From an uncultured Clostridia bacterium (GTDB lineage: Bacteria; Bacillota; Clostridia; UBA1381), in NCBI GenBank assembly GCA_944390495.1, contig CALXQE010000096.1, forward strand, positions 1-24,000: a DNA stretch of 24,000 nucleotides, read 5' to 3'. Position numbers and translations under genes: made by a program. Every line of letters begins with the position of its first letter. The first letter of the stretch is position 1. This document shows, one piece after another, positions 1,119 through 22,090 of the stretch. The notes below the pieces were generated by a model, which was given only the letters and a program-made list of their open reading frames with translations, did no database searches and had not been told where the DNA came from.

Positions 1119-1607
1119 TTACACCCCCAATTCATTTATAATGTTAATAATTGTATCCTTTATTATTGCACCAGATGTAACCGGAGCAATTTTTCCGGGA
1201 AGGGATAACGCCCAAATTACTCTTATGTTATATTCTTTTGCAGCATCAAAATCTACCCCCCCGGGCTTTGATGCAAGATCTATAATCAGTGCATCTTTTT
1301 TGACTTTTTTCAAAAGCTGATCATCTAAAATCAGTGACGGTATAGTGTTGAAGATTATATCAAATTCATGTATGTGACTATTAAGCTGTTCAATAGGTAA
1401 AGATACATAACCGTGACCTTCAATCATTGCAAGGTCTGCAAATTTTCGTGCTTCAACGTATGTCTGTGCACCCATTCCGTATAAATCCTTTGCAAGAATT
1501 TTTCCTATTTTACCATAACCTAAAACAAGACATTTGCTGCCGTGAATAGTAATAGGTGTTTCGGAAATGGCAATTTCTATCGCACCCTCCGCGGTAGGGA
1601 TTGCGTT
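1119..1607 (-). CDS. dpaA: dipicolinate synthase subunit A, 3' (C-terminal) fragment of a split gene
   Basis: The frame stays open upstream of the track ORF (1119-1475) up to 1613. It reads TANAIPTAEGAIEIAISETPITIHGSKCLVLGYGKIGKILAKDLYGMGAQ..., which matches the SpoVFA Rossmann segment (PTVEGTIM...IHGS...VLGLGRTG). It has no start codon or promoter of its own. Confidence 0.85.
   Translation of the reverse strand, partial: NAIPTAEGAIEIAISETPITIHGSKCLVLGYGKIGKILAKDLYGMGAQTYVEARKFADLAMIEGHGYVSLPIEQLNSHIHEFDIIFNTIPSLILDDQLLKKVKKDALIIDLASKPGGVDFDAAKEYNIRVIWALSLPGKIAPVTSGAIIKDTIINIINELGV
1591..1607. repeat. attL core: 17-bp imperfect direct repeat GCGGTAGGGATTGCGTT (partner at 21696-21712)
   Basis: 15 of 17 bases are identical to GCAGTAGGGACTGCGTT at 21696-21712 in the same orientation. 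Both copies encode NA(I/V)PTA of dpaA on the minus strand. Confidence 0.8.
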
Positions 1608-1953
1608 AGCGGTTTAGCTATAAATTAAAAAAGATCCCTAAGACGGAATCTTCTTGATAGGAGATGTTTATCTTTAATTTACCTAAATAATAAAATTTAT
1701 AGTCATTTATTCTTTTGAATATAGTGTCATAATTTTAGATGTTTTTTAAGTAGATATAATTTAGAGTTAAGAGAAAAATATTGTGATTTTTTTACATACA
1801 GAACACAGAACAAAAAATATCAAATATATTTAAAAACCCTTATAATATCGGGTTTATAGACAAAATATAGTATATAATAAAATCGGTGTTTAAGTGGAAA
1901 CTAAAACTTTATAAACGGACTTTTTTAGGTATCTAAAAGCTGCTGGTAAAAAA

Positions 1954-1983
1954 ATATCCCTACGATTGTAGGGATATTTTTTT
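1954..1983. terminator. bidirectional rho-independent terminator hairpin
   Basis: A 10-bp perfect stem (ATATCCCTAC / GTAGGGATAT) with loop GATT is flanked by A7 and T7 runs. Confidence 0.55.
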
Positions 1984-2021
1984 ATGTAAATATAAAAATA
2001 TATTATCATTTTAACCGTTCT

Positions 2022-2186
2022 TTAATCATTTGATTGTTTATCGGATAGGTGTTCGTTCTTGTCATCAAGCTCCAAAAATTCTGCAAAAAAGCAAAGACAA
2101 ATGTGTTCACCTTTATCATGTTTTTTAAAAGTATATCGTCTGTCAGCTTTACGAATAATCCCTGATTCGAATAATTCTTTTTTCAT
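2022..2186 (-). CDS. small hypothetical ORF (54 aa), not in the supplied track
   Basis: It runs from ATG 2186 to TAA 2022 and encodes MKKELFESGIIRKADRRYTFKKHDKGEHICLCFFAEFLELDDKNEHLSDKQSND. It is followed on its strand by the 1954-1983 terminator. The RBS is poor, and the frame is open a further 23 codons upstream without a start, so it may be a gene remnant. Confidence 0.2.
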   Translation of the reverse strand: MKKELFESGIIRKADRRYTFKKHDKGEHICLCFFAEFLELDDKNEHLSDKQSND

Positions 2187-2330
2187 AGATTTTGTATTAT
2201 ATTTAAGTTCATCCTTTATAAAGTCTTCGACGATTCGGTTATTGATATAAAAAATTCAAGTGTCATAGGGCATAGGAGTAAGAAATGCTTGGTAGTTTGA
2301 ATGATTAAATTCTTCAATCCATACAGTATT

Positions 2331-2585: not shown

Positions 2586-2608
2586 ATTAATATATGGGAG
2601 GTGTTGTT

Positions 2609-2734
2609 ATGCGACAATTAAGTCTTACGCAGAAACAAAAACTAAAGGAAAGTTATCGCCGTGGAATAGTACGGGAACTGTATGCAAAATCGCTTATAAG
2701 TGAATCGCAGTTCAGAAGACTTATGCAAAAGTAA
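2609..2734 (+). CDS. 41-aa basic protein immediately upstream of the recombinase; SHOCT-like C-terminal motif; candidate recombinase accessory or directionality factor
   Basis: The GGGAGG RBS at 2596-2601 lies 7 nt before the ATG. The product is MRQLSLTQKQKLKESYRRGIVRELYAKSLISESQFRRLMQK. The stop lies 33 nt before the recombinase start on the same strand. Confidence 0.5.
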   Translation: MRQLSLTQKQKLKESYRRGIVRELYAKSLISESQFRRLMQK

Positions 2735-2767
2735 AAATAAAAAAGATGTGGAGGGAGGTGTTTTGTG

Positions 2768-4360
2768 ATGCTCAAAGTTGCGGCCTATGCACGTGTATCA
2801 ACGGATAAAGACGATCAGATAAATTCACTGATAAATCAAAAAGAATATTTTGAAAACTACATAAAATCTCACGACGGTTGGTTATACAGCGGAGTGTTTT
2901 ATGACGAGGGTGTCACAGGCACCCAAACAAAAAAACGAATAGGTTTTAAAAGAATGATTGAAGAATGCAGGGCGGGGAATATTGACTTAGTACTTACAAA
3001 AGAAGTCAGCCGCTTTGCAAGAAATACAGTAGATACACTTAAATATACACGTAAGTTAAAGGAATACGGTGTTGGTGTACTGTTTATAAATGATAATATA
3101 GATACAAGGGAAAATGACGGGGAATTTCGACTTTCTATAATGGCATCGGTTGCTCAGGAGGAAAGCCGAAAAACATCAGAGCGTGTCAAATGGGGACAGC
3201 GGCGTTCGATGGAAAACGGTGTAGTATTTGGTAACAACAGTATTTTGGGGTTTAATATAAAAAACGGTGTAATCACCGTAAATGACGATGAAGCAGAAAT
3301 TGTGCGTCTTATATACCACAAGTACATAAATGAGGGAAAAGGAACTCATGTTATAGCAAGGGAATTGTATGAATCAGGTATAAAATCGCCTAAATCTTCA
3401 AAGGACCTTTGGAGCAGTACCATGATTTTAAAAATACTTAGAAATGAAAAATATGTAGGAGATCTTTTGCAGAAAAAATCAGTAACAACTGATTATCTTA
3501 CCCATAAGCGAATTATAAATGACAGCGACGATAAAATATTTATCGAAAATCATCACGAGGCTATAATTGACCGTGACACATGGAACAGAACACAGGAAGA
3601 ATTAAAACGGCGTAGCGTTGACGCTGATACAAAAAAGAAATACTCAAACAGATATTGGTGTTCGGGTAAAATTATTTGTAGCAGCTGTGGCGAAAGATTT
3701 GTTATACGTCGAAGCAGAAAAGTAAGCGGTGAGTATATTACTTGGGCGTGCCATTCAAGAGTATCACGTGGTAACAGAAAGATTGATGCAAACGGTAAAG
3801 AGGTCGGGTGTAATATGCGAATGATTAATAATAAGTCGCTGCTTGAATGTATGCGTTTTGTGACAGAGCAAATAAGTGTTGATTTTAATGATATAGTTGA
3901 TGAAGTGGTGTCGGAGATTAATGTGATGTCGCAATGTAATGATGATTCTATGTCAATCAATAGGCATATTCGCGATATAGAAGATAAGAAACTTAAAATG
4001 CTTGATAGCTATTTTGAGGGGATTATAAATTTCTATGAAATGGAAAAATTAAAGAGTAAGTATGATGGTCAGCTTGATAAATTAAATCAGCAGCTTGCAG
4101 AAGCGGAAAATAGACAAAACGCAATTAAAGAAAGACAACGTAGCTTGTCTGAGCTTAGGGATATTATTATCAATCAGACAATATATTCCCAGAGCGTATA
4201 TGCAGAAATACTTGATAAAATTACGGTGTATGATGATTATATGATTATAAAGCCTAAGTATATTGATTTTGTATTTAAAATCAGATATTCTACCCATGGA
4301 TATAAAGAAAACTATACTACGGTCATAGAGGAATGTACTATTGCTCCCGCAGATGAATAA
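2768..4360 (+). CDS. large serine recombinase (resolvase/invertase N-domain, recombinase domain, zinc ribbon and coiled coil)
   Basis: The N-terminus MLKVAAYARVSTDKDDQ carries the catalytic Ser motif, followed by SRFARN and Cys clusters CSGKIICSSCG...WACHS...GC. The C-terminus is a long Lys/Glu-rich coiled coil. GGAGG at 2754-2758 is the RBS. GTG 2765 is an alternative start. Confidence 0.93.
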   Translation: MLKVAAYARVSTDKDDQINSLINQKEYFENYIKSHDGWLYSGVFYDEGVTGTQTKKRIGFKRMIEECRAGNIDLVLTKEVSRFARNTVDTLKYTRKLKEYGVGVLFINDNIDTRENDGEFRLSIMASVAQEESRKTSERVKWGQRRSMENGVVFGNNSILGFNIKNGVITVNDDEAEIVRLIYHKYINEGKGTHVIARELYESGIKSPKSSKDLWSSTMILKILRNEKYVGDLLQKKSVTTDYLTHKRIINDSDDKIFIENHHEAIIDRDTWNRTQEELKRRSVDADTKKKYSNRYWCSGKIICSSCGERFVIRRSRKVSGEYITWACHSRVSRGNRKIDANGKEVGCNMRMINNKSLLECMRFVTEQISVDFNDIVDEVVSEINVMSQCNDDSMSINRHIRDIEDKKLKMLDSYFEGIINFYEMEKLKSKYDGQLDKLNQQLAEAENRQNAIKERQRSLSELRDIIINQTIYSQSVYAEILDKITVYDDYMIIKPKYIDFVFKIRYSTHGYKENYTTVIEECTIAPADE

Positions 4361-4391
4361 CGACAACAAAAAAGCTGTCGTTATTTTTTTA
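4359..4391 (+). terminator. rho-independent terminator after the recombinase gene
   Basis: The stem AACGACA / TGTCGTT is followed by a T-rich run (ATTTTTTTAT). Confidence 0.6.
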
Positions 4392-4401
4392 TCCACAATA
4401 G

Positions 4402-4710
4402 TCCGATACTTGCGAAAAACATTATGGTATACTTGACCTAAAGGCGAAATGACAGTATCAATTTCGGATGCTTCACGTGTGTTTTAGGCTAACTAAAGAA
4501 TATAAAATTACACCGTCAATGTCAATACGTGGTAATCTATATGACAATGCCTTAGCTGAAAATTTCTTTTCTATTCTTAAAACTGAGTGCATTCACAGGA
4601 TTCAACTGCACACCTATTAAGGGGAGATCCGCCTCATAGGTCAATACATAGATTTCTACAACAATTACCATATTCAAACTAAAACAAAATTGACACCATT
4701 TGAAAAATGA
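4402..4710 (+). pseudogene. IS3-family transposase (OrfB) 3' remnant, 5'-truncated with in-frame stops
   Basis: A single frame reads ...ILDLKAK*QYQFRMLHVCFRLTKEYKITPSMSIRGNLYDNALAENFFSILKTECIHRIQLHTY*GEIRLIGQYIDFYNNYHIQTKTKLTPFEK*. It contains the IS3 DDE C-terminal signature SMSxxGNxYDNAxxExFFxxLKxE and the YIxFYNN tail. In-frame stops lie at 4450-4452 and 4618-4620. Confidence 0.65.
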
Positions 4711-5234
4711 TGTTAGTTTATTGATTAAAATTTAATTATTCTAACATGGGTATACTTTTTTTGTGCTGTCCACACAATCTGGGCGGTTTAATAATATGTA
4801 TATGCTCTGATTTTTATAAACAATATGTCTTATCTTGCAACGTACAGTTCAAAATAAAGTCCAGAAAAACCATTTATCAAAGAGATATACTTTGCATAGA
4901 GTATGCGATATATTAAAAAATTGAATATAGCAAAAAATAGTATTTAGGTTAAAATGTACATTATCAGAAGTCATCTCAAGTTACACACGAACTTGTTTGT
5001 GTGATAAGAACAATAAGATTTTATGTTATCTGTATTAATATATTTTAAATCGTAATAATCTCTAAAGGATAATTATACAATCTATTGAAATATAATCGTT
5101 AAAAGATTACGGTATGATATGTAAAAAAATGGACATAATGGAATTGGAAGGGAAATAAAAGTTAATATTTTGTGTATTTTGTACAAAATAATATATAAAT
5201 TAATATATAAACTAATAAAAATGATATTTTCCTA

Positions 5235-5263
5235 TTGACAAACAACTGATTTTGTAGTAATCT
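5235..5263 (+). promoter_or_regulatory. putative sigma-A promoter of the beta-glucoside operon
   Basis: It reads TTGACA (5235-5240), 17 nt, TAATCT (5258-5263). The -10 is weak. It would place the transcript start just before the first RAT. Confidence 0.35.
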
Positions 5264-5276
5264 GATAACAGAAAAA

Positions 5277-5347
5277 GTTTGTTATTACGTGATGGTAAGC
5301 AAGACTGTTTATAATGCTGTTTTTGGGGTATTATAAGCAGTTTTTTT
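5277..5347 (+). promoter_or_regulatory. RAT (ribonucleic antiterminator) element overlapping a terminator, upstream of licT
   Basis: GTTTGTTATTACGTGATGGTAAGCAAGAC resembles the sacB/bgl RAT consensus (GGTTTGTTACTGATAAAGCAGGCAAGACCT). Its 3' end overlaps the stem CTGTTTATAAT / ATTATAAGCAG, which is followed by T7. Confidence 0.7.
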
Positions 5348-5372
5348 ATCTTTTACACGAGAGGTGAGAATT

Positions 5373-6224
5373 ATGGAAATTATCCGAGTTTTGAATACAA
5401 ATGCCGTTGTGACGGTTGATAAAAATCAACATGAGATAATTGTAACGGGTCCAGGACTTGGTTTTCGTAAGAAAAAGGGTGATTCTCTTGATGAGTCGTT
5501 AATAGATAAAACCTACAAACTGCAAAGTAATGAAGACAGTCGCAAACTTCAGGAGTTTGTTATGGCTGTTTCAGAACAATACCTCGATATTGCCAAACGT
5601 GTAGTTACAGAGGCTAGAGAAAAAGAAGGTCTGAAAATAAATGATGTACTCTATGTTACACTTACAGATCATATTAATTCAGCCATTGAAAGATATCAAT
5701 CAGGAATTGTGCTTAATAATGTGCTGAAATCAGATATTGAAAAATTTTATCCCAAAGAGTTTTCGATAGGAAAAAAGGCTATCCTATGGATTAAAGAAGA
5801 AACGGGGATTGACTTAGGTGATAATGAGGCAGCATTTATTGCTATGCACATAGTTGCATCTCAAACCAATGATAACAATACATCTAATGTACAAAAAATG
5901 ACAGAACTTATTAATGCTATTGTACAGATTGCAAGACTTCATTTTAAAGTTGATTTTCATGAAAATTCGTTTTCATATCAAAGATTTATTACACACTTGA
6001 AGTTTTTTGCAGGAAGAGTTTTTGATAATGCTACCTACAAAGACAGCATGTCTGAAATTTATAATATAATTATAAAACAAAATGCTTATGTCTATTCAGG
6101 AGTTCAGAAGGTTGCAGAATTTATAAAAAAAAGATATAACTATATTTTGAGTGTTGATGAGGCATTTTATCTTATGATTCATTTGAAACGTATCCTTGAT
6201 GAGGAACAACAGAATACACTATAA
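5373..6224 (+). CDS. licT: BglG/LicT/SacY-family PRD-containing transcription antiterminator
   Basis: The N-terminus MEIIRVLNTNAVV...GPGLGFRKKKGD is a CAT RNA-binding domain, followed by two PRD-like halves. GAGAGG lies 9 nt upstream of ATG 5373. The track start at 5364 is an upstream GTG. Confidence 0.9.
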   Translation: MEIIRVLNTNAVVTVDKNQHEIIVTGPGLGFRKKKGDSLDESLIDKTYKLQSNEDSRKLQEFVMAVSEQYLDIAKRVVTEAREKEGLKINDVLYVTLTDHINSAIERYQSGIVLNNVLKSDIEKFYPKEFSIGKKAILWIKEETGIDLGDNEAAFIAMHIVASQTNDNNTSNVQKMTELINAIVQIARLHFKVDFHENSFSYQRFITHLKFFAGRVFDNATYKDSMSEIYNIIIKQNAYVYSGVQKVAEFIKKRYNYILSVDEAFYLMIHLKRILDEEQQNTL

Positions 6225-6226
6225 TA

Positions 6227-6318
6227 GGTTTGTTATTATTAAGTTAAGCAAGACCTGATTGTAAATTTTACGCATAATACCCGGGAATGTGTATCATTTG
6301 CAGTCAGGTCTTTATTTA
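6227..6318 (+). promoter_or_regulatory. second RAT element overlapping a terminator, upstream of the PTS gene
   Basis: GGTTTGTTATTATTAAGTTAAGCAAGACCTGA is a very close RAT match. AAGACCTGA (6250-6258) pairs with TCAGGTCTT (6304-6312), followed by TATTTAT. Confidence 0.75.
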
Positions 6319-6346
6319 TAAAAATAAAAGAAAAGAGGTATTTATT

Positions 6347-8245
6347 ATGGATTACGAAAACATTGCAAAAAAAATATTGCACCGTGTCGGTGGCAAAGAT
6401 AATGTTGTAAGTGTTATTCACTGCATGACAAGACTGCGTTTTACATTAAAAGATCAGTCGATTGTAGATGATGAGGCGATAAAAAAGACAAAAGGTGTAA
6501 TGGGTGTTGTTAAAAAGGCAGGTCAATATCAAATCATAATTGGTAATGATGTAGCAAATGTTTACACTGAAATATGCAAACTTGGTAATTTTTCCGACAC
6601 TCCAAATAATAAAAAAGATGTGCCAAAAGAGAAAAAAAATATTCTAAGTATGCTTATGGATACCATTTCAGGTATAATGACACCTGTTATTCCGGCTATC
6701 ATAGGTGCTGCAATGATAAAAATATTGCTCACACTTTTGCCTATGCTCGGACTTATTGATACTGCCGGTGAAACATACAGTATCCTTAATGTTATAGGTG
6801 ATGGAGCGTTCTTCTTCTTGCCGGTGCTTATTGCGATTTCGGCTGCTAAAAAATTTGGTACAAATGTTTATTATGCGGTCAGTTTGGCACTTATTATGCT
6901 CCATCCAAATTTCATAGAAATGATGAATACGGTAAAGGAAACAGGAGAAGCAGTTCATTTTCTGAAATTCATACCAGTATCATATGCATCATATGCATAT
7001 TCGGTTATACCGATTATATTATCAGTTTGGGCGTTGAAATATGTTGAAAAACTTGTTGAAAAAATTACTCCGGTTGTAACGAAAAACTTCTTAAAACCAA
7101 TGCTTGTTATGCTTATTGCAGCACCGATTGCTTTAATAGTTTTAGGACCGCTTGGAGCAATATTCGGTGATGTTCTGTCAAAGGTGGTTTATTTTATACA
7201 CGATAAGCTTGGATTTATTGCTATCGGTATTATTGCAGGTATTTATCCGTTTGTGGTTATGGCAGGAATGCACCATGCATTTACACCTATTAAACTTGGA
7301 ATGTTAGCAACTACCGGATTTGAAAACTTTATATGTATAGGTGAGCTTTGCTCCAATATGGCACAAGGTGCTGCATCTGCAGCTGTTGCATTTAAGACAA
7401 AGAACAAGGATTTCAGACAGGTCGCAGGATCATCAGCATTCTCAGCACTTGTAGCAGGTATTACAGAACCAGCACTTTACGGTGTTACTTTAAGATTAAA
7501 GAAACCAATGCTTGGTGCTTGTATAGGAGCTGTTATAGGAGGTTTATTCGGAGGATTTTTCCAGTTAAAATGCTTTGGAATTGCAACACCAGCGATGGTG
7601 AGTATAGTTCAATATGTTGAAAGCGGTCGTCCTGCAAGTCTTTTGATTGCGGCACTTACAATACTAATAACTGCCGTTGCTGCTTTTATAGCAACTATGA
7701 TTATAGGTTTTGAAGACGTGGTTGATGAAGATGATGAATTGGACGTTGATGAAATAGCTTCAGCAGAAGAAAACAATTCAAAGTATGAAGGAGAAAGAAT
7801 GATAGTTGCTTCTCCTATTAAAGGAAAAACAATTTCACTTCTATCAGTAAACGATCCGACATTTTCAAATGAAATACTTGGCAAAGGTGCAGCTGTTGTA
7901 CCTGAGTCGGATGAGGTTTACGCTCCGTTTGACGGGACTGTTACAAATATGTTTGAAACAGGTCATGCTGTAGGATTGGAAAGTAATGATGGCATAGAAC
8001 TTTTAATACATGTAGGTCTTGACACGATTAATTTGAATGGACAATATTTTAATCCAGCAGTAAAAACAGGCGATGTAGTAAAGAAGGGTGATATGCTTTT
8101 GAAATTTGACAGGAATGAAATAAAGAAAGCAGGCTATGATATTACTACTCCTATAATAGTTACAAATTCCGATAATTTTAATAATGTTGAGTTAATAGAA
8201 GAAAAGAACTGTGATAAATTAGAACCACTAATTACTGTTAAGTGA
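6347..8245 (+). CDS. PTS beta-glucoside-family transporter, fused EIIB-EIIC-EIIA
   Basis: The EIIB Cys motif is VIHCMTRLRF. A multi-TM EIIC core follows. The C-terminal EIIA-Glc-type domain carries the TGHAVGL and LIHVGLDT histidines. The AAGAGG RBS precedes ATG 6347; the track start at 6287 lies inside the terminator. Confidence 0.9.
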   Translation: MDYENIAKKILHRVGGKDNVVSVIHCMTRLRFTLKDQSIVDDEAIKKTKGVMGVVKKAGQYQIIIGNDVANVYTEICKLGNFSDTPNNKKDVPKEKKNILSMLMDTISGIMTPVIPAIIGAAMIKILLTLLPMLGLIDTAGETYSILNVIGDGAFFFLPVLIAISAAKKFGTNVYYAVSLALIMLHPNFIEMMNTVKETGEAVHFLKFIPVSYASYAYSVIPIILSVWALKYVEKLVEKITPVVTKNFLKPMLVMLIAAPIALIVLGPLGAIFGDVLSKVVYFIHDKLGFIAIGIIAGIYPFVVMAGMHHAFTPIKLGMLATTGFENFICIGELCSNMAQGAASAAVAFKTKNKDFRQVAGSSAFSALVAGITEPALYGVTLRLKKPMLGACIGAVIGGLFGGFFQLKCFGIATPAMVSIVQYVESGRPASLLIAALTILITAVAAFIATMIIGFEDVVDEDDELDVDEIASAEENNSKYEGERMIVASPIKGKTISLLSVNDPTFSNEILGKGAAVVPESDEVYAPFDGTVTNMFETGHAVGLESNDGIELLIHVGLDTINLNGQYFNPAVKTGDVVKKGDMLLKFDRNEIKKAGYDITTPIIVTNSDNFNNVELIEEKNCDKLEPLITVK

Positions 8246-8259
8246 GAGAGGTGTTTAAT

Positions 8260-9711: not shown

Positions 9712-9727
9712 AGAGGAGTTGTGTAAA

Positions 9728-10907: not shown

Positions 10908-11237
10908 TTATAATTTTAGGTATTGTTGTGCATCAGAACCATTGTTTCCAAGATTTTTAACATTTTTTATAGTTCCATTTTTAACATTATCATATAACCA
11001 TCGACCAAGTAATGCTGGTGGAGTATCGATCAAATCTCTCAAAAAGAACGTTTCTCCCTTTGCAAGATTATTAATTTTATTTACCATGTCGATGTATAAA
11101 TCGCCATAAGAATTTTTTCCGTTGAATGCTCTTGCTTTACATAATGCAGCAATGTTAGGATATCCTTCAGCTCTTGCTTGGCAATCCAACATTGCTTTTT
11201 CGGAGTCGCTAATAGTAAATTGTACTCTAAAACTCAT
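10908..11237 (-). CDS. small hypothetical protein: ribbon-helix-helix-like N-terminus plus DUF1413-like C-terminus (tentative)
   Basis: GGAGG lies 5 nt upstream of ATG 11237. The product starts MSFRVQFTISDSEKAMLDCQARAEGY.... The C-terminus GETFFLRDLIDTPPALLGRWLYDNVKNGTIKNVKNLG recalls DUF1413 from memory only. Confidence 0.6.
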   Translation of the reverse strand: MSFRVQFTISDSEKAMLDCQARAEGYPNIAALCKARAFNGKNSYGDLYIDMVNKINNLAKGETFFLRDLIDTPPALLGRWLYDNVKNGTIKNVKNLGNNGSDAQQYLKL

Positions 11238-11254
11238 AAAAACCTCCATGTTAT

Positions 11255-13649: not shown

Positions 13650-13666
13650 AAAAACACCTCAAAATA

Positions 13667-13763: not shown

Positions 13764-16700
13764 ATGAAGAAAAGATTTATATCGCTTTTTACGATATTGT
13801 GTATGGCGGTATCGCTGATGCCGTCAATAATATTACCGGCTGCGGCAGAAACGAGCGTTTATGGTTACGGCACTAATGTATTACAGAATCCATCACCCAC
13901 ATCAAATGATTATTGGGAATTGGAAGATTGTTCTTATGGAAAATATTTGGGCTTGGGCAAAGATGAACCATATATATTCGGTGCAAAACAGGGAACGAAT
14001 ATTGCCGCAAGGCAGAAGATAACACTGATCGATGAAGATGTAATTCGTGCAAATAACGGAGAATTAACATTGTCGGCTTCAGGTAAATTTTATGCACAAG
14101 GCTCAAGAAGCCTTACGGCAAATTTGAATATTATTTGTTATAATTCATCTGGTGCTGTTTTAGCGACCTATAATGACCGTTATTCAGAGTATTCCTTTAG
14201 TGGCAGGACAAAGACTTTAAGTATAGGGGAGTCACAGATTCCTGCCGGTACCTCTTATATTGTGTATGAGGGTACGGAAGTCTTGGGTTCGGGCAATGCT
14301 TATTTCGGCATGTATGATTTCAGCATGATATTTTTCGACAAAACCACCCCAACGGTTAAAACTACACCATATCTTTATGCGGTAAATGATGATACAAATT
14401 TGCCGGCGTATGTTGTGCCTGAAAATAAGATTACATATGCTATTGATTTTAGCGAAGCGGTGACGGTCGGTGCATATCCTACAATAGATTTATCTATTGA
14501 ATCAGATGTAAGCTATGATATAACTTATTCAGAGGATAGGCAAACTGTATATTTTACAACGGCACTTCCTAATACGGGAACAAATACAAACGTTCAGCTT
14601 AAAAAAATATCAGGACTTTATGTTAAAGATGATGCGGGAAACGAATGCAGTTATACAGACGAATCACTTTCCGTCGGCAATCTTTCGTACAAATCTGTTT
14701 TTGATGTTACAAACAGCCTTACGAATTTAAGTTTTGCCGGAAACACGACTGTTAGGTACAAAACAGCATATTCTGCAACTCTTACACCGAATGACGGGTA
14801 TAAACTGCCTGATAGCATTACCGTAAAGGTAAACGGCAGTACCATAACCGATTATAATTATAATTCGTCAACGGGACAAATTTTGGTAAATTCCTCTGCA
14901 GTGACGGGTAATATTGAAATTACAGCGACAGCACCGGCACAAACATATACCATTACATTTGATATGCAGGGAGGTAGCGGCGGTACAGGAAGTATGGACA
15001 TAACGTACCTTAACCAATTATCATCTGTTACACCTCCGACACGTAACGGCTATACCTTTGGCGGATACTTTAGTGAAAAAAATGGCGGCGGAACACAGTA
15101 TTACCAGTATGATGGAAATTCAGGAAAAATATATGACAAAACTACCAATATAACGCTGTATGCGAAATGGACTCCGAAAGAGTATAGCGTTACACTTGAT
15201 GCACAGGGCGGAACGAATGGCGGAACGGTTACCGCAACTTATGATTCAGACATGCCTGCTATGACAAAACCAACTAAAAAAGGCTATACCTTTAATGGGT
15301 ATTATACACAGCCAAACGGAGCAGGCGAGAAATATTATAATGCTGACGGAACATCTGCGAGGAAATATGATAAAATAGACGGACTGGTACTTTATGCATC
15401 ATGGATTGCCAATGAGCATACTGTTACGCTGGATATGCAGGGCGGAAGCGGTAGGACGGCAAGCGTTACTGCAACCTATGACCAAGCTATGCCAAGCATT
15501 AAACCTCCTACCAGAGAGGGATATACCTTTGGTGGATATTTTGATAATACAAACGGAGAAGGAAATCAGTATTACTACCCAAACGGTACATCTGCAAAGA
15601 CCTTTGAGGTGGACAGCGACTTAATACTTTATGCCAAGTGGACACCTAATATATATGATGTAGTGATAGATGCCCAGGGCGGTTCGGGCAGCGGAACTGT
15701 TACAGCGACCTATGACAGTGAGATGCCTGTGATAGCTTTGCCGGACAAACCGGGTTATATATTCGGCGGATACTTTAGTGAAAAAAATGGCGGCGGAACA
15801 AAGTATTACAATGAGGATTGTACGTCTTCAATAACGTATAAACAAACGGAAGGTATCACTCTATACGCACTTTGGACGCCGATTACATACAATATTCAGC
15901 TTTACAGCATGGGAGAAAATGTAGGAACATTAACGGACGTTACATACGGTGAGTTAAGTCTACCGTCTGCGGAAAGTCTTGGAATTTCTTATGCAAATCA
16001 TAATTTTGTAGGTTGGAATATTTATGATGAACAGAATTGGGCGATGTATATTGCAGGTCAAACCTATTCGACAGGTCTTGTAACAGAGCAGGGAAAGACA
16101 GCGTATGTATATGCAGCGTGGCTTGAAAAAGATAAATATACCGTTACCTATGATGCAAACGGCGGAGGGGGTGCACCTGCGGCCGTAGAAGTACATGTTG
16201 ATGAAACAATCACACTTAGTTCTTCTGTTCCAAGTCGTGAAAACTATACATTTGTCGGTTGGTCTCAAAATTCCGGAGCAGATACGGCACAGTATCAGCC
16301 GGGTGATAGTTTCACAATGGGGAATTCCCTTGTAACTCTTTTTGCAGTGTGGAAGAAAAATCCCGAATTATCATATAACTCAAATGGCGGTGTTTTCAGT
16401 ACCTATGTAGGAGTGTCATATCCGACGGCAGGAAGCAGTGTAAATCTTACGAGTGCCACACCACAGAAAGAAGGATATATTTTCTGTGGTTGGGCAGAAA
16501 GGGAAAATGCAGCCATTGACGATATCATATCATCGCCATATACAATGCCTGATAGAGATACAGTGCTTTATGCTGTATATGAGCCGATTAAATATGAAGT
16601 TCGGGTGAGTGAAGCAGCGGGCTATTCGGTTAACGGTATATCTGCTGACGGATATACAATCGGAGAGTATGCGGAATTTACTGTAAGCGGTGCAAATCCA

Positions 16701-19700
16701 AAGGTATATATAAACGGTATTCGTGTTATGCCTGAGGACGGGAAATATAAATTTGAAGTAAGCAATAGTTCGTCGATTATAGTTTCTGATTCTTCGTCGA
16801 TGAATGTAATTTATAGTGCAAACGGCGGTGTGAATGCACCTGTTGACATGAAAGTTTACGCAAACGGAGATACTGCATACATAACCTCACAGATACCGAC
16901 CAAAACAGGATATACATTCAAGGGCTGGACGGAAGCACCGAATTCCAGAAGTACAGTATATAATTACGGCGACAGTATTGCGGTTTCGGCGGAGGATATT
17001 GTATTATATGCTCTATGGGAACCTGTGAGCTATACTGTTAAATATGATTCAAATGGTGGCAGCGGCGATATGACACAAACCACAGCTGTATATGATGAAG
17101 CATTTAAGCTTTCGGAAAATACCTTTACAAAAGAGGGCTGTCAGTTTATAGGCTGGTCATATTCAGAAAACGGAGAGATGGCATATGCAAACGGAGCAAG
17201 TGTAAAAAATCTTTCCGATACACAGGATGATGAAATTACCCTTTATGCAATGTGGAAAAGTGCAAAGACAAAGGTTTTGTTTAATTTTGACGGGGGATCT
17301 TCCGGAACAACCTCATGCGAGGTTGAATACGGAAATGTGCTGCCGACAGACAAGCTGATTGCACCAATCAGATACGGATTTACATTTGCGGGATACTATA
17401 CAGAGGCAAATAAGAAAGGCAATTTAGTCTACAATGAGGATATGTCTTTGTCAGATTATTATAAAACAAATCCATGGAACAGCGTTTTATCTGAATTTAA
17501 TTTATATGCAGCATGGGAGCCGGTAAAATATAACGTATCATTTATAAGCGAAACAGGAGCAGTTGTTGCTGAAATAGAAGCAGTCTATGGAGAAGCTTTT
17601 ACATTGCCTGAAGTGGATACATTGGATGTTTCTGTTCCGGAGGGATATTCATTTAGAGGCTGGTCTGTTGCTCCGGGAAGTAATACGGTTTATTACAGTG
17701 ACGGTCAAAAAATTACAACAGGTCTTACAGGAGAAAACGATGTAACGGTTTATCTGTATGCTGTGATTCTTGAAAATGAAAGCTATTTGGTAACGCTTCC
17801 TGCCTCCGGTGAAGGTTATCATGTATATTATGACGGGGATGAATTAACGGCGGAGAAAAATGTAACAGTTACTGAGAATAAAAATATTTCGTTCAGCATA
17901 ACAGTAGACGATGGATACAGTGCAGATGAAATGACTGTTTTGACAAATGGGATTATACTTGGTGCTACAGAGATAAACGGCAGTACATACAGTTACAGTA
18001 TAAATAACATATCTGCCGACACAAGCGTTAATATATATAATGTTAATAAGGAAAAATTTAATGTTATACTTAATGACGGAACAGGTTACACTGTGTCGCC
18101 TAAAAATATAATAGTAGAAAGCGGACAGGACTTCAGTTTTTCAGTTACGCTTAAAGATGGATATAAAACTTCAATTCCTGATGTATATGTAAACGGACAG
18201 CTTATAAGCGGAACTAAGAATGAAAATATATTTACATATACCGTTACTGATGTAACAATGCAGCCTGTTATTTCAATTTCTGTTACACCGAATCAGCAGC
18301 ATACAATTACCTTTGTAAGTAACGGCAGTATATATCTAATAAGCACAGTGGAGGAGGGGATGCAGGTATCCCAGCCGAGTGCACCCGATAGAAACGGATA
18401 TACATTTGGAGGATGGTATACAGATATAGAGTGTAATAACCCATATGATTTTCAAACGGAGATAACAGATTCTATCACGCTTTATGCAAAGTGGACTGCT
18501 GATACATACACTGTGGAATATGACAAAAATACAACTGATGATGTTTCTGTCCCGGACAGTCAAACAAAAAATCACGACACTGTACTTACGCTAAGCTCTG
18601 ATATTCCGACTCGTACAGGATATACTTTTACAGGCTGGAATACAAAAGCTGACGGAACTGGAACAAGTTATATTGCAGGCGGTGAACTTAGCATAAATAA
18701 TAATATTACCCTCTATGCACAGTGGCAAATTAATAGATATGCAGTTTCGCTTGTTGTGGGAGATGGTGTGAGTGGCAGCATAAGCGCAAGTGAAGCTGCA
18801 CATGGCGAAACTGTTAAAATTACCGCAGTGAGTACAGATGGTCACGGTACACCTGTTGTTACAGCAATTCCTAAGGAAAATGCAGAACTTGTTTCTGACG
18901 GTGTCTATAAAATAACAGGTCCTGTTTCCTTTGTAGCAATGGCAGAGGCTAAGGGGATTTACACAGTAAAATTTTACCACAACGGCGGACTTTATTATAC
19001 GCAGTCTGCCATTGAGGGAAGTACAGACACAATCATACTGCCTAATCCTCCTGAAAAACAGGGTTATACTTTTGTCGGCTGGTTTACTGAACAGACAGGA
19101 GGAGAAGAGATAAATGAGTCGACGGTTTTGGATAAAGATATGTCTGTATATGCACAATTTACGGCAAATACTTTGACCGTAACACTGCCGCAAAGCGGAA
19201 ATGGATATATAGTTACGTCAAACGACGACACAAACGTAACTTATGGCGGCAGCTATACATTTACAATCACAGCAACAGCCGGTAATAACATTGATAATAT
19301 AGTAATTTTTGCAAACGGCATGGAGCTTACGCCGGTATCTGTAAGTGACGGAGTAATAATTTATACTATAAGCAATATAACAGAAAATATCACAGTCAGC
19401 ATAAGAGACGGTGGAATTGATACTTATACGATTACCTATCATTCGGCAACATCGGAGTATGTAGGTAATATGCCTGAAGGTCAGATTAAAGAAATTGGAA
19501 ACAGTGTTACATTATCAAATCTTGAACCACAGCGTTATGGATATACATTTGAAGGCTGGGCAACAGAGAAAGACGGTGAAGTGATTTACATGCCCGGTGC
19601 GGAATATACTGCTGATGAGGATGTTAATTTATATGCCGTATGGACACCAATAACATATACAGTTACTTATGAATTAAACGGCGGTACTATTAACAGCGGA

Positions 19701-21590
19701 GAAATAAATGAGTATGTGTATTCTGTCGGAGCGGTACTTCCGTCAGATGTAACAAAAGACGGATTTGATTTTATAGGTTGGTACGATAATGAATTTCTTG
19801 AAGGAGTACGTGTAACAGAAATTACACCTACAGACAGCGGAGATAAAAAATATTATGCACGTTATTCATTGTCGAGTGTTGTACCGAATGGTTATGAGGG
19901 TGAATATGACGGAAGCGGACATATTTTAGAATACACGCTGGTAGATGAACTGACAGTGCAATCATATCAATGGTATTTTAAGGCGGATAGCAGTAATATG
20001 TTTATACCTGTTCAGTCAGAATCTGCATTTTCTTATACTGTATGTGATGTGTCGGACAGCGGCGAGTATTACTGTTATGTAGAAGCGTTGCAAGACGGCT
20101 GCATTGTGAGATTTAACACCGGAGCGGCAAATGTTAATATTACAAAGAAACCGCTTTTGGTAAAAGCAAAGAGTGCCCAGAAAACCTATGACACTTTGCC
20201 ACTGACGTCGAAAGAAATTGAATTTACAGACGAAACTGTACCGATAAGCGGACATATTGTAAAAGCAGAAATGACAGAAACAAGTACAATTACAAATGCA
20301 GGAACGGTCGAAAATAATCTGCAAAATGTTACTGTTTATGATGCCGATAATAATGATGTAACAGCAAATTATGAAATTCAATGTATATCCGGAACACTTA
20401 CTGTAAATAAATTGCCTCTTTCAGTAGAGGGAAATACAGTATCGAAATATAAAAATGCTTCTGTTGCAGAAAGTGAATTATACAAGATTTCAGGTGTTTT
20501 AAGCGGTGAAACACTTTCTATTGACAATACATCTTTTGTTATAACAAATTCAAAGGGTGAAGTGGTAAACAGTTTAAGTGATATTACAAAAGAAAACGGC
20601 ACTTATAAAATTACCATAACATTTAACGGTTTTGCAGGTGATGGCTGTGAAAACTATACAGGAAGCGGTAATATTATTTCTAATATTACCGTAAGTTCTC
20701 GTCCTTCAGGCGGCGGCAGCAGCGGAGGTAGCAGTGGCGGTAGTGGCAGTAGTAGTAACAGCGAGGGTGACAGCGAAGCTGACAATGAACAATCAAAGTA
20801 TGTAGTAAGCTTTGATACAAACGGTGCTGAAAAAATAGACAGCGTTACGGTTATTAAAAATCAAAAATTAAATCAACCGGAAGAGCCGACAAAGGAAGGA
20901 TATACTTTTGGTGGTTGGTACACAGATAGAGAGCTTACAACTGCTTATGATTTCTCTTTAGGGGTAACAGAATCATTTGTGCTTTATGCAAAGTGGACAA
21001 AAACAGATGATAACAATGATAATGAACAGTATGAACCTCCGTTTGATGATGTTGAGCCTGATAAGTGGTATTATACCGATATCGGTTTTGTGGTTGAGAA
21101 CGGCATATTTAACGGAATAACAGATGAAATTTTTGGGCCTGAGGAGATTATCACAAGAGCGATGCTTGTTACGGTTTTATATCGTGTAGAGGGTGAACCG
21201 GAAGTTACAGGTACTGCCACCTTTGAAGATATAGATAAAGACGGGTATTATGCAGAAGCGATTGTTTGGGGACAGCAGAACGGAATAATAAAAGGATATT
21301 CCGACACGGAATTTGCTCCCGACCAAAACATTACAAGAGAACAGATAGCGGCAATCATGCACAGATACGCTAAGTATAAAGGTATTGACACAACAGAGGA
21401 AGAAAAAACAGATATTTATTTCTATACAGATTATGATGATATTTCAGGGTATGCAATACCGTCTGTTCAGTATGTTGTCGGCAGTGGTTTGATGCAGGGC
21501 AAGACTGCTGTAACATTCCATGCTCTTGATAATGCAACAAGAGCGGAAATAGCAGCTATACTTCATAGATTTATTGTATCAAACAATTAA
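13764..21590 (+). CDS. 2608-aa secreted, SLH-anchored cell-surface protein with ~17 Listeria-Bacteroides repeat (Flg_new-type) domains, Ig-like modules, MBG-like domains, a Gly/Ser linker and 3 C-terminal SLH domains
   Basis: The signal peptide is MKKRFISLFTILCMAVSLMPSIILPAAAE. The motif GYTFxGW(Y/F)...LYAKW recurs. NYEIQCISGTLTVNK is MBG-like. The linker is SGGGSSGGSSGGSGSSS. The SLH repeats are FDDVEPDKWYY..., FEDIDKDGYYAEAI... and ...SGYAIPSVQYVVGSG.... AAGGAG precedes the ATG. Confidence 0.9.
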   Translation: MKKRFISLFTILCMAVSLMPSIILPAAAETSVYGYGTNVLQNPSPTSNDYWELEDCSYGKYLGLGKDEPYIFGAKQGTNIAARQKITLIDEDVIRANNGELTLSASGKFYAQGSRSLTANLNIICYNSSGAVLATYNDRYSEYSFSGRTKTLSIGESQIPAGTSYIVYEGTEVLGSGNAYFGMYDFSMIFFDKTTPTVKTTPYLYAVNDDTNLPAYVVPENKITYAIDFSEAVTVGAYPTIDLSIESDVSYDITYSEDRQTVYFTTALPNTGTNTNVQLKKISGLYVKDDAGNECSYTDESLSVGNLSYKSVFDVTNSLTNLSFAGNTTVRYKTAYSATLTPNDGYKLPDSITVKVNGSTITDYNYNSSTGQILVNSSAVTGNIEITATAPAQTYTITFDMQGGSGGTGSMDITYLNQLSSVTPPTRNGYTFGGYFSEKNGGGTQYYQYDGNSGKIYDKTTNITLYAKWTPKEYSVTLDAQGGTNGGTVTATYDSDMPAMTKPTKKGYTFNGYYTQPNGAGEKYYNADGTSARKYDKIDGLVLYASWIANEHTVTLDMQGGSGRTASVTATYDQAMPSIKPPTREGYTFGGYFDNTNGEGNQYYYPNGTSAKTFEVDSDLILYAKWTPNIYDVVIDAQGGSGSGTVTATYDSEMPVIALPDKPGYIFGGYFSEKNGGGTKYYNEDCTSSITYKQTEGITLYALWTPITYNIQLYSMGENVGTLTDVTYGELSLPSAESLGISYANHNFVGWNIYDEQNWAMYIAGQTYSTGLVTEQGKTAYVYAAWLEKDKYTVTYDANGGGGAPAAVEVHVDETITLSSSVPSRENYTFVGWSQNSGADTAQYQPGDSFTMGNSLVTLFAVWKKNPELSYNSNGGVFSTYVGVSYPTAGSSVNLTSATPQKEGYIFCGWAERENAAIDDIISSPYTMPDRDTVLYAVYEPIKYEVRVSEAAGYSVNGISADGYTIGEYAEFTVSGANPKVYINGIRVMPEDGKYKFEVSNSSSIIVSDSSSMNVIYSANGGVNAPVDMKVYANGDTAYITSQIPTKTGYTFKGWTEAPNSRSTVYNYGDSIAVSAEDIVLYALWEPVSYTVKYDSNGGSGDMTQTTAVYDEAFKLSENTFTKEGCQFIGWSYSENGEMAYANGASVKNLSDTQDDEITLYAMWKSAKTKVLFNFDGGSSGTTSCEVEYGNVLPTDKLIAPIRYGFTFAGYYTEANKKGNLVYNEDMSLSDYYKTNPWNSVLSEFNLYAAWEPVKYNVSFISETGAVVAEIEAVYGEAFTLPEVDTLDVSVPEGYSFRGWSVAPGSNTVYYSDGQKITTGLTGENDVTVYLYAVILENESYLVTLPASGEGYHVYYDGDELTAEKNVTVTENKNISFSITVDDGYSADEMTVLTNGIILGATEINGSTYSYSINNISADTSVNIYNVNKEKFNVILNDGTGYTVSPKNIIVESGQDFSFSVTLKDGYKTSIPDVYVNGQLISGTKNENIFTYTVTDVTMQPVISISVTPNQQHTITFVSNGSIYLISTVEEGMQVSQPSAPDRNGYTFGGWYTDIECNNPYDFQTEITDSITLYAKWTADTYTVEYDKNTTDDVSVPDSQTKNHDTVLTLSSDIPTRTGYTFTGWNTKADGTGTSYIAGGELSINNNITLYAQWQINRYAVSLVVGDGVSGSISASEAAHGETVKITAVSTDGHGTPVVTAIPKENAELVSDGVYKITGPVSFVAMAEAKGIYTVKFYHNGGLYYTQSAIEGSTDTIILPNPPEKQGYTFVGWFTEQTGGEEINESTVLDKDMSVYAQFTANTLTVTLPQSGNGYIVTSNDDTNVTYGGSYTFTITATAGNNIDNIVIFANGMELTPVSVSDGVIIYTISNITENITVSIRDGGIDTYTITYHSATSEYVGNMPEGQIKEIGNSVTLSNLEPQRYGYTFEGWATEKDGEVIYMPGAEYTADEDVNLYAVWTPITYTVTYELNGGTINSGEINEYVYSVGAVLPSDVTKDGFDFIGWYDNEFLEGVRVTEITPTDSGDKKYYARYSLSSVVPNGYEGEYDGSGHILEYTLVDELTVQSYQWYFKADSSNMFIPVQSESAFSYTVCDVSDSGEYYCYVEALQDGCIVRFNTGAANVNITKKPLLVKAKSAQKTYDTLPLTSKEIEFTDETVPISGHIVKAEMTETSTITNAGTVENNLQNVTVYDADNNDVTANYEIQCISGTLTVNKLPLSVEGNTVSKYKNASVAESELYKISGVLSGETLSIDNTSFVITNSKGEVVNSLSDITKENGTYKITITFNGFAGDGCENYTGSGNIISNITVSSRPSGGGSSGGSSGGSGSSSNSEGDSEADNEQSKYVVSFDTNGAEKIDSVTVIKNQKLNQPEEPTKEGYTFGGWYTDRELTTAYDFSLGVTESFVLYAKWTKTDDNNDNEQYEPPFDDVEPDKWYYTDIGFVVENGIFNGITDEIFGPEEIITRAMLVTVLYRVEGEPEVTGTATFEDIDKDGYYAEAIVWGQQNGIIKGYSDTEFAPDQNITREQIAAIMHRYAKYKGIDTTEEEKTDIYFYTDYDDISGYAIPSVQYVVGSGLMQGKTAVTFHALDNATRAEIAAILHRFIVSNN
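14943..15887 (+). repeat. four tandem ~237-bp (79-codon) intragenic repeats encoding Listeria-Bacteroides repeat units
   Basis: The units begin TYTITFDMQGG, YSVTLDAQGG, HTVTLDMQGG and YDVVIDAQGG. An identical 36-nt block GGCGGATACTTTAGTGAAAAAAATGGCGGCGGAACA occurs at 15060-15095 and 15765-15800. Confidence 0.75.
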
Positions 21591-21607
21591 ATAACGGGAA
21601 TTTTAAT

Positions 21608-21640
21608 GGGCATACCAAAAAACGGTATGCCCTAATTTTA
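21608..21640. terminator. rho-independent terminator after the giant gene
   Basis: A 9-bp perfect stem (GGGCATACC / GGTATGCCC) with a 7-nt loop is followed by TAATTTTA. On the other strand it is followed by ATTAAAATT. Confidence 0.6.
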
Positions 21641-21682
21641 TGTGTAAATGAATATGATAAACTGTATTTACTAAATTCATAG

Positions 21683-22090
21683 CTATATTACAAACGCAGT
21701 AGGGACTGCGTTTTTAATTGAAAGTTCTTCTCGTTTTAAATAGTCACGGCAGGCAATGTGGTTATCTTCAAGTTCTTTTTTTAAGTTTGGTTGTATTTGA
21801 CCGCCAAACACCAGTGCTGATGGGTTTATATTTCTTATAAGTTCATCTATTGTTAATGGTTCTTTTGCGTATGGTGAATTAATAGTTACTCCGTCAAAGG
21901 TTACAGGTACAGGCAGAATTATTATATCTGCACCGAGAACAAAATCCTTATCTGTTTCAGCCAATCCTTCGTCTACTGCTATATCTTTGTCGAAACCGTA
22001 CATAAAGACATGATACCCTTCTTCTTTCATAAGGCGTGCAAGGGTAAGCTGCCTTAAATCTCCGCCTATAACGGAAACTGTTTCAAACAT
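21683..22090 (-). CDS. dpaA: dipicolinate synthase subunit A, 5' (N-terminal) fragment of a split gene (132 genuine codons plus 3 element-encoded codons and a stop)
   Basis: MFETVSVIGGDLRQLTLARLMKEEGYHVFMYGFD... aligns with the SpoVFA N-terminus (KIAVIGGDARQLEIIRKL...LVGFD). A GGAGG RBS is present. Homology stops at PTA. Confidence 0.88.
   Translation of the reverse strand: MFETVSVIGGDLRQLTLARLMKEEGYHVFMYGFDKDIAVDEGLAETDKDFVLGADIIILPVPVTFDGVTINSPYAKEPLTIDELIRNINPSALVFGGQIQPNLKKELEDNHIACRDYLKREELSIKNAVPTAFVI
21696..21712. repeat. attR core: GCAGTAGGGACTGCGTT (partner at 1591-1607)
   Basis: See the attL entry. It lies at the exact point where the dpaA 5' fragment departs from SpoVFA homology (…NAVPTA then FVI-stop). 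Confidence 0.8.

Follow-up and report, generated by a model that had tools for sequence, protein, structure and literature searches.

A serine-recombinase element splitting the dipicolinate synthase gene dpaA in gut Clostridia

The stretch of DNA analysed here (referred to as the window: 24,000 nt of contig CALXQE010000096.1 from an uncultured Clostridia bacterium) carries the sporulation genes dpaA (spoVFA) and dpaB for the two subunits of dipicolinate synthase. In this window, dpaA is divided into a 5' part and a 3' part by an insert of 20,105 bp that encodes a large serine recombinase. We describe the two halves of the gene and the junctions of the insert, compare them with related loci, and ask whether the insert is a gene-intervening element of the kind known from other sporulation genes.

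The split dpaA gene and the ends of the insert

The following features define the split locus (attB and attP are given as rebuilt from the two junctions):

535-1116, minus strand: dpaB, dipicolinate synthase subunit B, intact, 193 aa, directly downstream of the dpaA 3' half
1119-1598, minus strand: dpaA 3' part, codons 130-288 and stop, beginning at the break without a start codon of its own
1573-1623: junction beside the dpaA 3' part (attR-type), central dinucleotide 1597-1598 (GG on the plus strand, CC in dpaA sense)
2609-2734, plus strand: conserved open reading frame (ORF) of 41 aa, MRQLSLTQKQKLKESYRRGIVRELYAKSLISESQFRRLMQK, directly upstream of the recombinase gene
2768-4360, plus strand: large serine recombinase, 530 aa (531 aa with a GTG start at 2765)
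21678-21728: junction beside the dpaA 5' part (attL-type), central dinucleotide 21702-21703
21703-22090, minus strand: dpaA 5' part, codons 1-129 and the first base of codon 130
22124-22151, minus strand: sigmaK-type promoter-like site, AC-N17-CATATTATA, 33 nt upstream of the dpaA start codon
Rebuilt attB, dpaA sense: AGAACTTTCAATTAAAAACGCAGTCCCTACCGCGGAGGGTGCGATAGAAATT
Rebuilt attP, dpaA sense: TTATAGCTAAACCGCTAACGCAATCCCTACTGCGTTTGTAATATAGCTATGA

The original prediction, made from the window alone, was that dpaA is split by a serine-recombinase element of 20.1 kb, and both halves are indeed recognizable by translation and by domain searches. The ORF 21683-22090 (minus strand) reads MFETVSVIGGDLRQ...SIKNAVPTA, then runs into attP-derived codons (FVI) and stops at 21683; it matches DpaA_N (Pfam PF16924; E=3.6e-29, 101.7 bits), as expected for the SpoVFA N-terminus that it was taken for. 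The minus-strand frame entering 1119-1607, proposed to be the next SpoVFA segment, reads from ANAIPTAEGAIEIAISETPITIHGS... to ...INELGV with the stop at 1119 and matches NAD-binding domains in Pfam, in keeping with the fold of a DpaA second half. Neither half contains a frameshift or an internal stop.

Joining the halves at any point within the similar 17-mers at the break (1591-1607 and 21696-21712, identical in 15/17 positions) results in a gene of 867 nt with 288 codons and a single terminal stop, precisely what excision had been predicted to rebuild. The joined protein scores 324.7 bits with the NCBIfam model NF006162 (dipicolinate synthase subunit DpsA; cut-off 261), and 245.4 with the older model TIGR02853, below its cut-off of 319.65. 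Uninterrupted alleles, searched for with the rejoined gene, are represented by intact orthologues: the best 41 database relatives are all full-length (288-292 aa, 100% query coverage) and at most 85% identical. The joined DpaA is collinear end to end and gap-free with the 288-aa orthologues, and in an alignment with 12 orthologues there is no gap near the junction, which lies in the invariant PTAEGAI motif. No intact DpaA of more than 85% identity was found among 5.8 billion clustered proteins. The dpaB gene starts 3 nt after the dpaA stop; its product exceeds the cut-offs of both NCBIfam models (NF006161, 281 bits, cut-off 156; TIGR02852, 259 bits, cut-off 229) and matches the Pfam family Flavoprotein.

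The exact DpaA N-terminal fragment is encoded on a contig of ENA assembly ERZ24773278 (99.95% identity over 6 kb) and in Logan accession ERR4096322 (100%), and the exact DpaB on a 102-kb contig of ENA assembly ERZ26858765 (locus L051), which is 96% identical to the window at the nucleotide level and has the same recombinase, the same cargo and the same gene order. The same junctions are present in these independent assemblies, which excludes an assembly artefact. At least four assemblies contain the split allele of this species or its close relatives, and no other form has been seen for the species.

The break had been thought to be marked by a 17-bp direct repeat. The similarity of the two 17-mers is real, whereas the crossover itself is a 2-bp CC instead, the first two bases of the codon for the invariant Pro130 (GG on the plus strand at 1597-1598 and 21702-21703, with 20,105 bp between the two crossovers). 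In dpaA sense, the 5' junction of the window is AACGCAGTC-CC-TACTGCGTT TGTAATATAGCTA and the 3' junction is TAGCTAAACCGCT AACGCAATC-CC-TACCGCGGAG. In loci L022 and L025 (the related loci are described below), the only central bases common to both junctions are CC, which fixes the exchange point. The element-side arm of the attR-type junction (1603-1620) is the conserved attP arm TAGCTAaACCGCTAACGC, a motif with one occurrence in the window and none expected by chance; the same attR-type sequence is present in strain L051, and the attL-type junction is identical in L001 and L002. Across loci, the two element-side arms repeat a single motif in inverted orientation (TAGCTATACCGCTAACGC / GCGTTAGCGGTATAGCTA), which makes the reconstructed attP near-palindromic: its arms are symmetrical at 16-22 of 25 positions in 9/10 loci (10 in L035), and those of the reconstructed attB at 6-11 of 25 positions in 9/10 loci (15 in L035). 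Large serine recombinases are recognisable by just such a crossover, 2 bp long, non-palindromic and with arms of this type on either side. The attB rebuilt from the window closely matches the real uninterrupted sites of its relatives L003-L006, so that relatives without the element agree with the predicted junction. Judged from these sequences, the 17-bp similarity is a mimicry of attB by attP and not the crossover. Longer flanking repeats at the element ends are absent from the window, and the insert has no compositional boundary (GC content 0.29-0.43 throughout).

The recombinase gene, predicted about 1.1 kb inside the left end, begins 1.17 kb from the left junction (about 0.3 kb in L051, which does not have an 840-bp segment located in between). 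Its most likely start is ATG 2768, the choice of the gene callers in L051; with the alternative GTG 2765 the product is probably too long, since an exact look-up of the 531-aa form gave no match and the 530-aa product was found in L051. The protein has the N-terminal serine motif YARVS at residues 8-12, matches the Pfam domains Resolvase (1.4e-34, 119.7 bits) and Recombinase (9e-25, 87.3 bits), and reaches 1e-4 and 23.0 bits with Zn_ribbon_recom, just under the cut-off of 25.3. Furthermore, it matches PHROG 95 (integrase, 1.6e-122), its catalytic domain matches PDB 3g13 at 1.2e-41, and its NCBIfam hits (to CcrC, XisF and CcrB) are all sub-threshold.

Split dpaA genes, selection and promoters in related Clostridia

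A scan with the recombinase as query, covering one genome per GTDB species, returned 41 loci. In 26 of them dpaA is broken at residues 125-137 beside the recombinase homologue (tblastn), and these recombinases are 47-72% identical to that of the window. The carriers are labelled as Hominilimicola, Butyricicoccus, Pseudoflavonifractor and Candidatus Ornithomonoglobus, or are isolates and metagenome-assembled genomes (MAGs) of Oscillospiraceae, Clostridia and Clostridiaceae. The isolates among the carriers include Clostridiaceae bacterium strain 9 (QXXE01000022), whose 4.66-kb element has both junctions, and Butyricicoccus sp. Marseille-Q5471 (NZ_CATNVC010000010). In a neighbour-joining tree of the recombinases all 26 split-dpaA loci fall into one clade (47-74% identity); no dpaA is located within 10 kb of those recombinases that group elsewhere (38-47% identity). 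Four clade members without a visible dpaA fragment are located on short contigs or possibly belong to elements longer than the fetched flank. In L037, the dpaA fragments seemed to overlap (aa 84-288), but this came from a spurious alignment extension.

Elements with both junctions present measure 3.15-8.4 kb, the 20.1 kb of the window being the largest seen. The only genes of the window element that recur in other elements are the small ORF and the recombinase; beyond these two, there are just distant transporter or surface-protein similarities to window genes, and many elements are reduced to 3-5 kb with little else. The small ORF (consensus motif +GI(I/V)+ELY...(I/L)T..Q(F/Y)..L) precedes the recombinase gene in all of the clade and also outside it, and it was called as a gene in L051. 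In family scans, Pfam gave a sub-threshold match to SHOCT, whereas NCBIfam and PHROGs gave none. By analogy to GirX, the 42-aa directionality factor of the gin element (PMC5595907), its product is a candidate recombination directionality factor.

A search with the 135-aa DpaA fragment revealed 76 clusters of proteins consisting of DpaA_N only. Twelve of the 13 clusters inspected end at NA(V/I)PTA followed by a short tail; one cluster has 617 members, and one is indexed in 97 collection blocks, including human-gut cohorts. At present, split dpaA genes are annotated as fragments or as "hypothetical protein", and genome-based predictions of which gut commensals sporulate will therefore miscount their carriers.

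The split arrangement is kept across hosts whose DpaA proteins have diverged to about 30-50% identity. Recombinase identity tracks the identity of the DpaA fragments across loci (Pearson r=0.76-0.85, for pairs that are not independent), which fits a long co-residence of the two. Two sister lineages share the upstream pst-phoU synteny at 91.6% nucleotide identity: dpaA is split in L057-L059 (a human-gut lineage, with N-fragment clusters of 617 and 225 members) and intact in L060-L063 (P0010), where dpaB is broken instead.

Continuing selection on the joined gene, also part of the original prediction, is directly supported by substitution patterns. Between the window and L051, which both carry the element, there are 8 synonymous and 1 non-synonymous changes in the dpaA 3' half (ratio of non-synonymous to synonymous rates, dN/dS, 0.035), 19 and 0 in dpaB (dN/dS 0), 4 and 0 in the small ORF (dN/dS 0), and 83 and 31 in the recombinase gene (dN/dS 0.076). 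Between related species, dN/dS of split alleles is 0.04-0.10 for the N-halves (at a synonymous divergence, dS, of about 0.2) and 0.08-0.33 for the C-halves, similar to the values for dpaB (0.06-0.22) and the recombinase (0.12-0.24). Together with the intact reading frames, these values show, at the level of sequence comparison, purifying selection on the dpaA halves, dpaB, the small ORF and the recombinase while dpaA is split.

The pattern AC-N16/17-CATAnnnTA, which we take to be that of sigmaK promoters on the basis of the B. subtilis consensus, has two matches in 48 kb (both strands of the window), one of them before dpaA. Four intact dpaA loci and 13 further split ones have the same pattern at -58 to -67. 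The dpaAB operon is reported to be under sigmaK control in the mother cell (preprint 10.1101/2022.02.25.481979). In L015, L037, L022 and L026, the operon of small ORF and recombinase shares the orientation of the dpaA 5' fragment and follows it at a distance of about 80-100 nt, and read-through from the sigmaK-type promoter of dpaA could therefore time excision in these four loci, which we put forward as a hypothesis. A sequence cGGAATT-N12/13-GCGAATA(A/C)A, which by eye resembles the sigmaH consensus, follows a terminator before the small ORF of two loci, L007 and L053, and is not present in the window.

A proposed excision in the mother cell and its alternatives

We regard it as probable that the insert in dpaA is a skin-like gene-intervening element that is excised in the mother cell during sporulation. 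According to this proposal, the inherited chromosome, which passes through the spore, would keep dpaA in two pieces. In the terminally differentiated mother cell, the large serine recombinase would bring the two junctions into synapsis, probably assisted by the conserved 41-aa protein as directionality factor. Strand exchange at the central CC of the Pro130 codon would release the element as a circle and restore an intact dpaA-dpaB operon behind the sigmaK-type promoter, so that dipicolinate synthase could be produced late in the mother cell, and the forespore would keep the insert. Excision itself, its confinement to the mother cell and the role of the small ORF are inferred.

Several observations weigh against this proposal. 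The element-side arm at the attL-type junction of the window has diverged from the consensus attP arm of the clade. No convincing sporulation promoter precedes the small ORF and the recombinase gene of the window in searches with regular expressions for sigmaK, sigmaE and sigmaA promoters and in an alignment of the upstream regions of close relatives, which have no motif in common with the window before the small ORF; the dpaA promoter of the window cannot drive the recombinase gene either, because the latter is antisense to dpaA. In L019, L020, L030 and L034, dS of the recombinase (0.08-0.22) is lower than that of the flanking dpaA 3' half and dpaB (0.28-0.53), and hence the elements are likely still exchanged between related hosts; this suggests that in the L019 group they are not purely domesticated switches and not strictly vertically inherited. 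The Lapin group has the opposite dS pattern. In L009, the dpaA 3' fragment (2196-2621) ends early at residue 263 (...SLPPNAI-stop). A degenerate pattern for attB, attP, attL and attR had 0 matches in JGI metagenome contigs; this species itself is absent from them, so the scan carries no information on excision. Finally, the carrier organisms are uncultured or poorly characterised, including as to sporulation. As for L009, its truncated dpaA abuts a convergent P-type ATPase gene, and dpaB is not on the 4.4-kb contig; this may be due to decay of the split allele, to another insertion or to a MAG contig that is chimeric.

The insert might also be an ordinary integrative mobile element that landed in the stretch coding for NAVPTAEG and inactivated dpaA, in a host that is asporogenous or obtains dipicolinic acid otherwise, with excision serving transfer. 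The accessory cargo, typical of genomic islands, is in line with such an element, as are the truncated dpaA of L009, the recombinase dS (0.08-0.20) below that of host dpaA and dpaB (0.25-0.53) in the L019 group (which suggests recent host exchange), and the remnant of an insertion sequence (IS) and the pseudogenised ROK gene of one strain, which could be ordinary island turnover. We nevertheless consider this explanation unlikely, given that the dpaA halves, dpaB and the sigmaK-type promoter are intact and under purifying selection in carrier lineages, that many elements are minimal (3-5 kb), that the tested ORFs of the window include no relaxase, conjugation or phage structural genes, and that the arrangement persists over about 30-50% DpaA identity with the recombinase tracking DpaA (r=0.76-0.85). 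Somewhat less likely still is an excision that restores dpaA outside the mother-cell programme, being stochastic or stress-triggered in a fraction of vegetative or pre-divisional cells in the manner of active lysogeny or phase variation, so that full spores would come from cured cells only. Germ-line excision of this kind would lose the element, yet two strains whose flanks are 96% identical have retained it, the split is the only form seen for the species, and the recombinase operon of at least four related loci is co-oriented downstream of the sigmaK-promoted dpaA 5' part, as would suit a timing in the mother cell. On the other hand, no sigmaE- or sigmaK-type promoter can be assigned to the recombinase operon of the window, intact and split alleles occur in sister lineages with the same synteny, and for yin of C. 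botulinum, part of the population excises the element whatever the growth stage (PMC10747680). That faulty assembly or binning created a chimera, with unrelated DNA joined inside dpaA, is refuted and deserves hardly any credence: the same junction sequences come from different samples, and the same break with conserved att arms recurs in 26 other species.

Developmental excision as proposed for dpaA has well-studied parallels. The skin element in sigK is excised by SpoIVCA in B. subtilis and by CD1231 together with the directionality factor CD1234 in C. difficile, as demonstrated experimentally. Like skin, its nearest analogue in overall architecture, the dpaA element would by its excision restore a mother-cell gene in frame (here in silico). 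It differs from skin in its target gene, in the clade of its recombinase and in the small ORF immediately upstream of the recombinase gene; moreover, excision and its control are shown for skin, whereas the dpaA element is known from sequence alone. A comparison of 15 skin elements revealed widely varying sizes and the recombinase as the only common gene (preprint 10.1101/2022.02.25.481979), and the dpaA elements are likewise variable in size and without common genes beyond their core.

Another of the closest analogues, vfbin, lies in spoVFB (dpaB) of Bacillus weihenstephanensis KBAB4 and is, in the accounts given by later papers, phage-like and excised during sporulation (Abe et al. 2013, cited in PMC4191935 and PMC6957869). 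Both elements interrupt a mother-cell gene for a subunit of the same enzyme, dipicolinate synthase. However, the target of vfbin is spoVFB/dpaB, whereas here it is dpaA, with dpaB intact in the window; and, as far as vfbin can be compared by description, a phage-like element in a Bacillus host contrasts with a clostridial (Oscillospiraceae-like) host and a cargo free of phage genes. The gin element in gerE of B. cereus ATCC 10987 is a 28.6-kb non-prophage element with three recombinase genes and the 42-aa GirX, a directionality factor for GirC that has no known motif and whose role was shown in vivo and in vitro (PMC5595907). The dpaA element resembles gin in being non-prophage and tens of kb long (20.1 versus 28.6 kb), and in having accessory cargo and a tiny (candidate) directionality factor; it differs in its target (dpaA, not gerE) and in having one recombinase gene instead of three. 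Among the elements in heterocyst nif genes of cyanobacteria, the fdxN element is excised by the serine recombinase XisF. These elements, too, are excised developmentally from genes of a terminally differentiated cell type, and several sites per gene are possible, just as relatives of the window have two elements in dpaA and a third site in dpaB; phylum and developmental programme differ, and the window recombinase reaches 99 bits with the XisF model (cut-off 375), without a close sequence relationship.

Intervening elements have been described in sigK, spsM, spoVFB, spoVR, gerE, yabG, cotJC and spoIIID (PMC4191935, PMC6957869, PMC5595907, PMC10747680, PMC5025042, preprint 10.1101/2022.02.25.481979), and skin, SPbeta, vfbin, vrin, gin and yin provide precedents for the excision logic (PMC4191935, PMC5595907, PMC10747680, PMC5025042). 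No element in dpaA/spoVFA was found in the literature searched, in which vfbin is represented through citing papers. As far as this literature goes, the dpaA-splitting element is thus previously undescribed, although its kind (skin-like) is already known. If excision does take place, dpaA joins sigK, spsM, spoVFB, spoVR, gerE and yabG among the spore genes controlled by rearrangement, and such control would operate not in model Bacilli but in gut Clostridia that are abundant and for the most part uncultured. Dozens of natural sets of recombinase, attB and attP with a defined CC crossover are available in the clade, along with a candidate 41-aa directionality factor; they could be useful in studies of site choice and direction of serine integrases and as parts for genome engineering. 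With its genes for beta-glucoside uptake, an efflux pump and a 2,608-aa surface protein, the window element suggests that such elements can carry traits of the vegetative phase without a cost for spore formation.

Further break sites in dpaAB, cargo and neighbouring genes

In five loci, dpaA has a second break in the motif SKPGG|VDF (residues 243-246) and is thus present in three pieces. The dpaA pieces at this break are:

L010: 2274-2624
L015: 18148-18522
L017: 3244-3372 and 9260-9646
L025: 7200-7559
L031: 12919-13308 and 20471-20611

A separate serine recombinase is located at the second break in L017, L025 and L031; these enzymes are 25-28% identical to that of the window and 39-45% identical to each other. 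Inverted arms TTTGGATAA / TTATCCAAA at this break suggest another serine-recombinase att site. Furthermore, dpaB is cut after CGSFCT (residues about 15-20) in six loci, with a conserved element-side sequence (...TTTGATACAATTTAA...):

L003: 4876-4929
L054: 15459-15512
L060: 6516-6575
L061: 7998-8042
L062: 7373-7426
L063: 4164-4223

Downstream of the dpaB break, L060 has genes for a holin and a CHAP-endolysin and two serine recombinases. The break is polymorphic within one species (cut in L054, intact in L053 and L055), and it looks like a clostridial counterpart of vfbin. With breaks at dpaA Pro130, dpaA PGG|VDF and dpaB CGSFCT|F, the dpaAB operon is a multi-site hotspot, and in some genomes it would take two excisions to restore dpaA. 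All three sites lie in invariant protein motifs, which offers a testable rule for the choice of targets. We tentatively propose, as a generalization about as likely to fail as to hold and rather nearer to the former, that many gut Oscillospiraceae and related Clostridia make dipicolinic acid by way of a programmed rearrangement of dpaAB: three sites in invariant motifs would form the hotspot, at least the two in dpaA each having a recombinase lineage of its own, some hosts would need two excisions for one gene, as in heterocyst nif genes, and some repairs would be timed by the dpaA promoter.

Besides the small ORF and the recombinase gene, the insert of the window contains the following features:

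1628-1655, minus strand: terminator-like hairpin just inside the element, facing the dpaA 3' part (consensus scan)
1732-2572: strain-variable segment of 840 bp, absent from the otherwise collinear L051 (blastn), not part of the core
4468-4620, plus strand: possible IS3-type transposase remnant (C-terminal rve piece; Pfam rve_3, E=0.004, below threshold)
5364-6224, plus strand: BglG/LicT-type antiterminator (Pfam CAT_RBD and PRD)
6287-8245, plus strand: phosphotransferase system (PTS) component EIIBCA (Pfam PTS_EIIB/EIIC/EIIA)
8242-9711, plus strand: 6-phospho-beta-glucosidase of glycoside hydrolase family 1 (Pfam Glyco_hydro_1)
9683-10672, plus strand: ROK kinase (Pfam ROK)
10908-11249, minus strand: DUF1413 protein (Pfam)
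11468-12823, plus strand: MATE efflux transporter (Pfam)
12855-13649, minus strand: MerR-family regulator (Pfam)
13764-21590, plus strand: cell-surface protein of 2,608 aa, ending 112 nt before the right-hand crossover

The hairpin at 1628-1655, kept in L051 with two changes, would stop read-through from the element into the dpaA 3' part and dpaB. The 840-bp segment contains two unconserved small minus-strand ORFs, 2022-2186 (no PHROG match) and 2331-2585 (no Pfam, NCBIfam or PHROG match), which were rejected as core genes or directionality factor, being absent from L051 and without homologues in other elements. At about 1950-1985, the segment has a perfect 10-bp palindrome between runs of A and T (seen by eye). 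Between the recombinase and antiterminator genes (4360-5364), there is 1 kb without a long ORF, with a long terminator-like hairpin (5301-5344) just upstream of the BglG-type antiterminator gene.

The genes at 5364-10672 form a beta-glucoside utilisation cluster, present with the same genes in the same order in L051; none of them was found in the elements of other species. The ROK gene of L051 (1291-2235) has a premature stop, and gene calling divided it in two (117 and 183 aa); its dN/dS is 0.51, whereas the rest of the cluster is under purifying selection between the window and L051. The 2,608-aa surface protein is built of Listeria-Bacteroides (Flg_new) repeats (3.4e-167, 14 matched stretches), has internal repeat families and ends with three C-terminal SLH domains (3.2e-25). 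The Pfam domains of the long cargo ORFs are thus those of metabolic, transport or surface proteins. No phage structural or lysis genes were detected among the tested window ORFs, the recombinase having the only strong PHROG match; those of the MerR regulator are weak (best E=3e-6, to a family of uncharacterised function). A phage origin of the element is not supported: the closest recombinases from phages and viral contigs are at most 45.7% identical. Relaxase, coupling-protein and type IV secretion domains are absent from the element ORFs of at least 100 aa (small ORFs were scanned only in part), and no RNA family was detected in the window (Rfam, gathering threshold).

Beyond dpaA, at 22219-22300, the window has a promoter TTGACA-N17-TATAAT followed by tandem copies of the CtsR-box-like sequence GGTCAAAGAAAGTCAAAGTCAAAG just before ctsR. 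The start of the ctsR ORF at 22252 is probably too far upstream, an ATG near 22294 being the likelier start. The gene order ctsR-mcsA-mcsB-clpC is present in L001.

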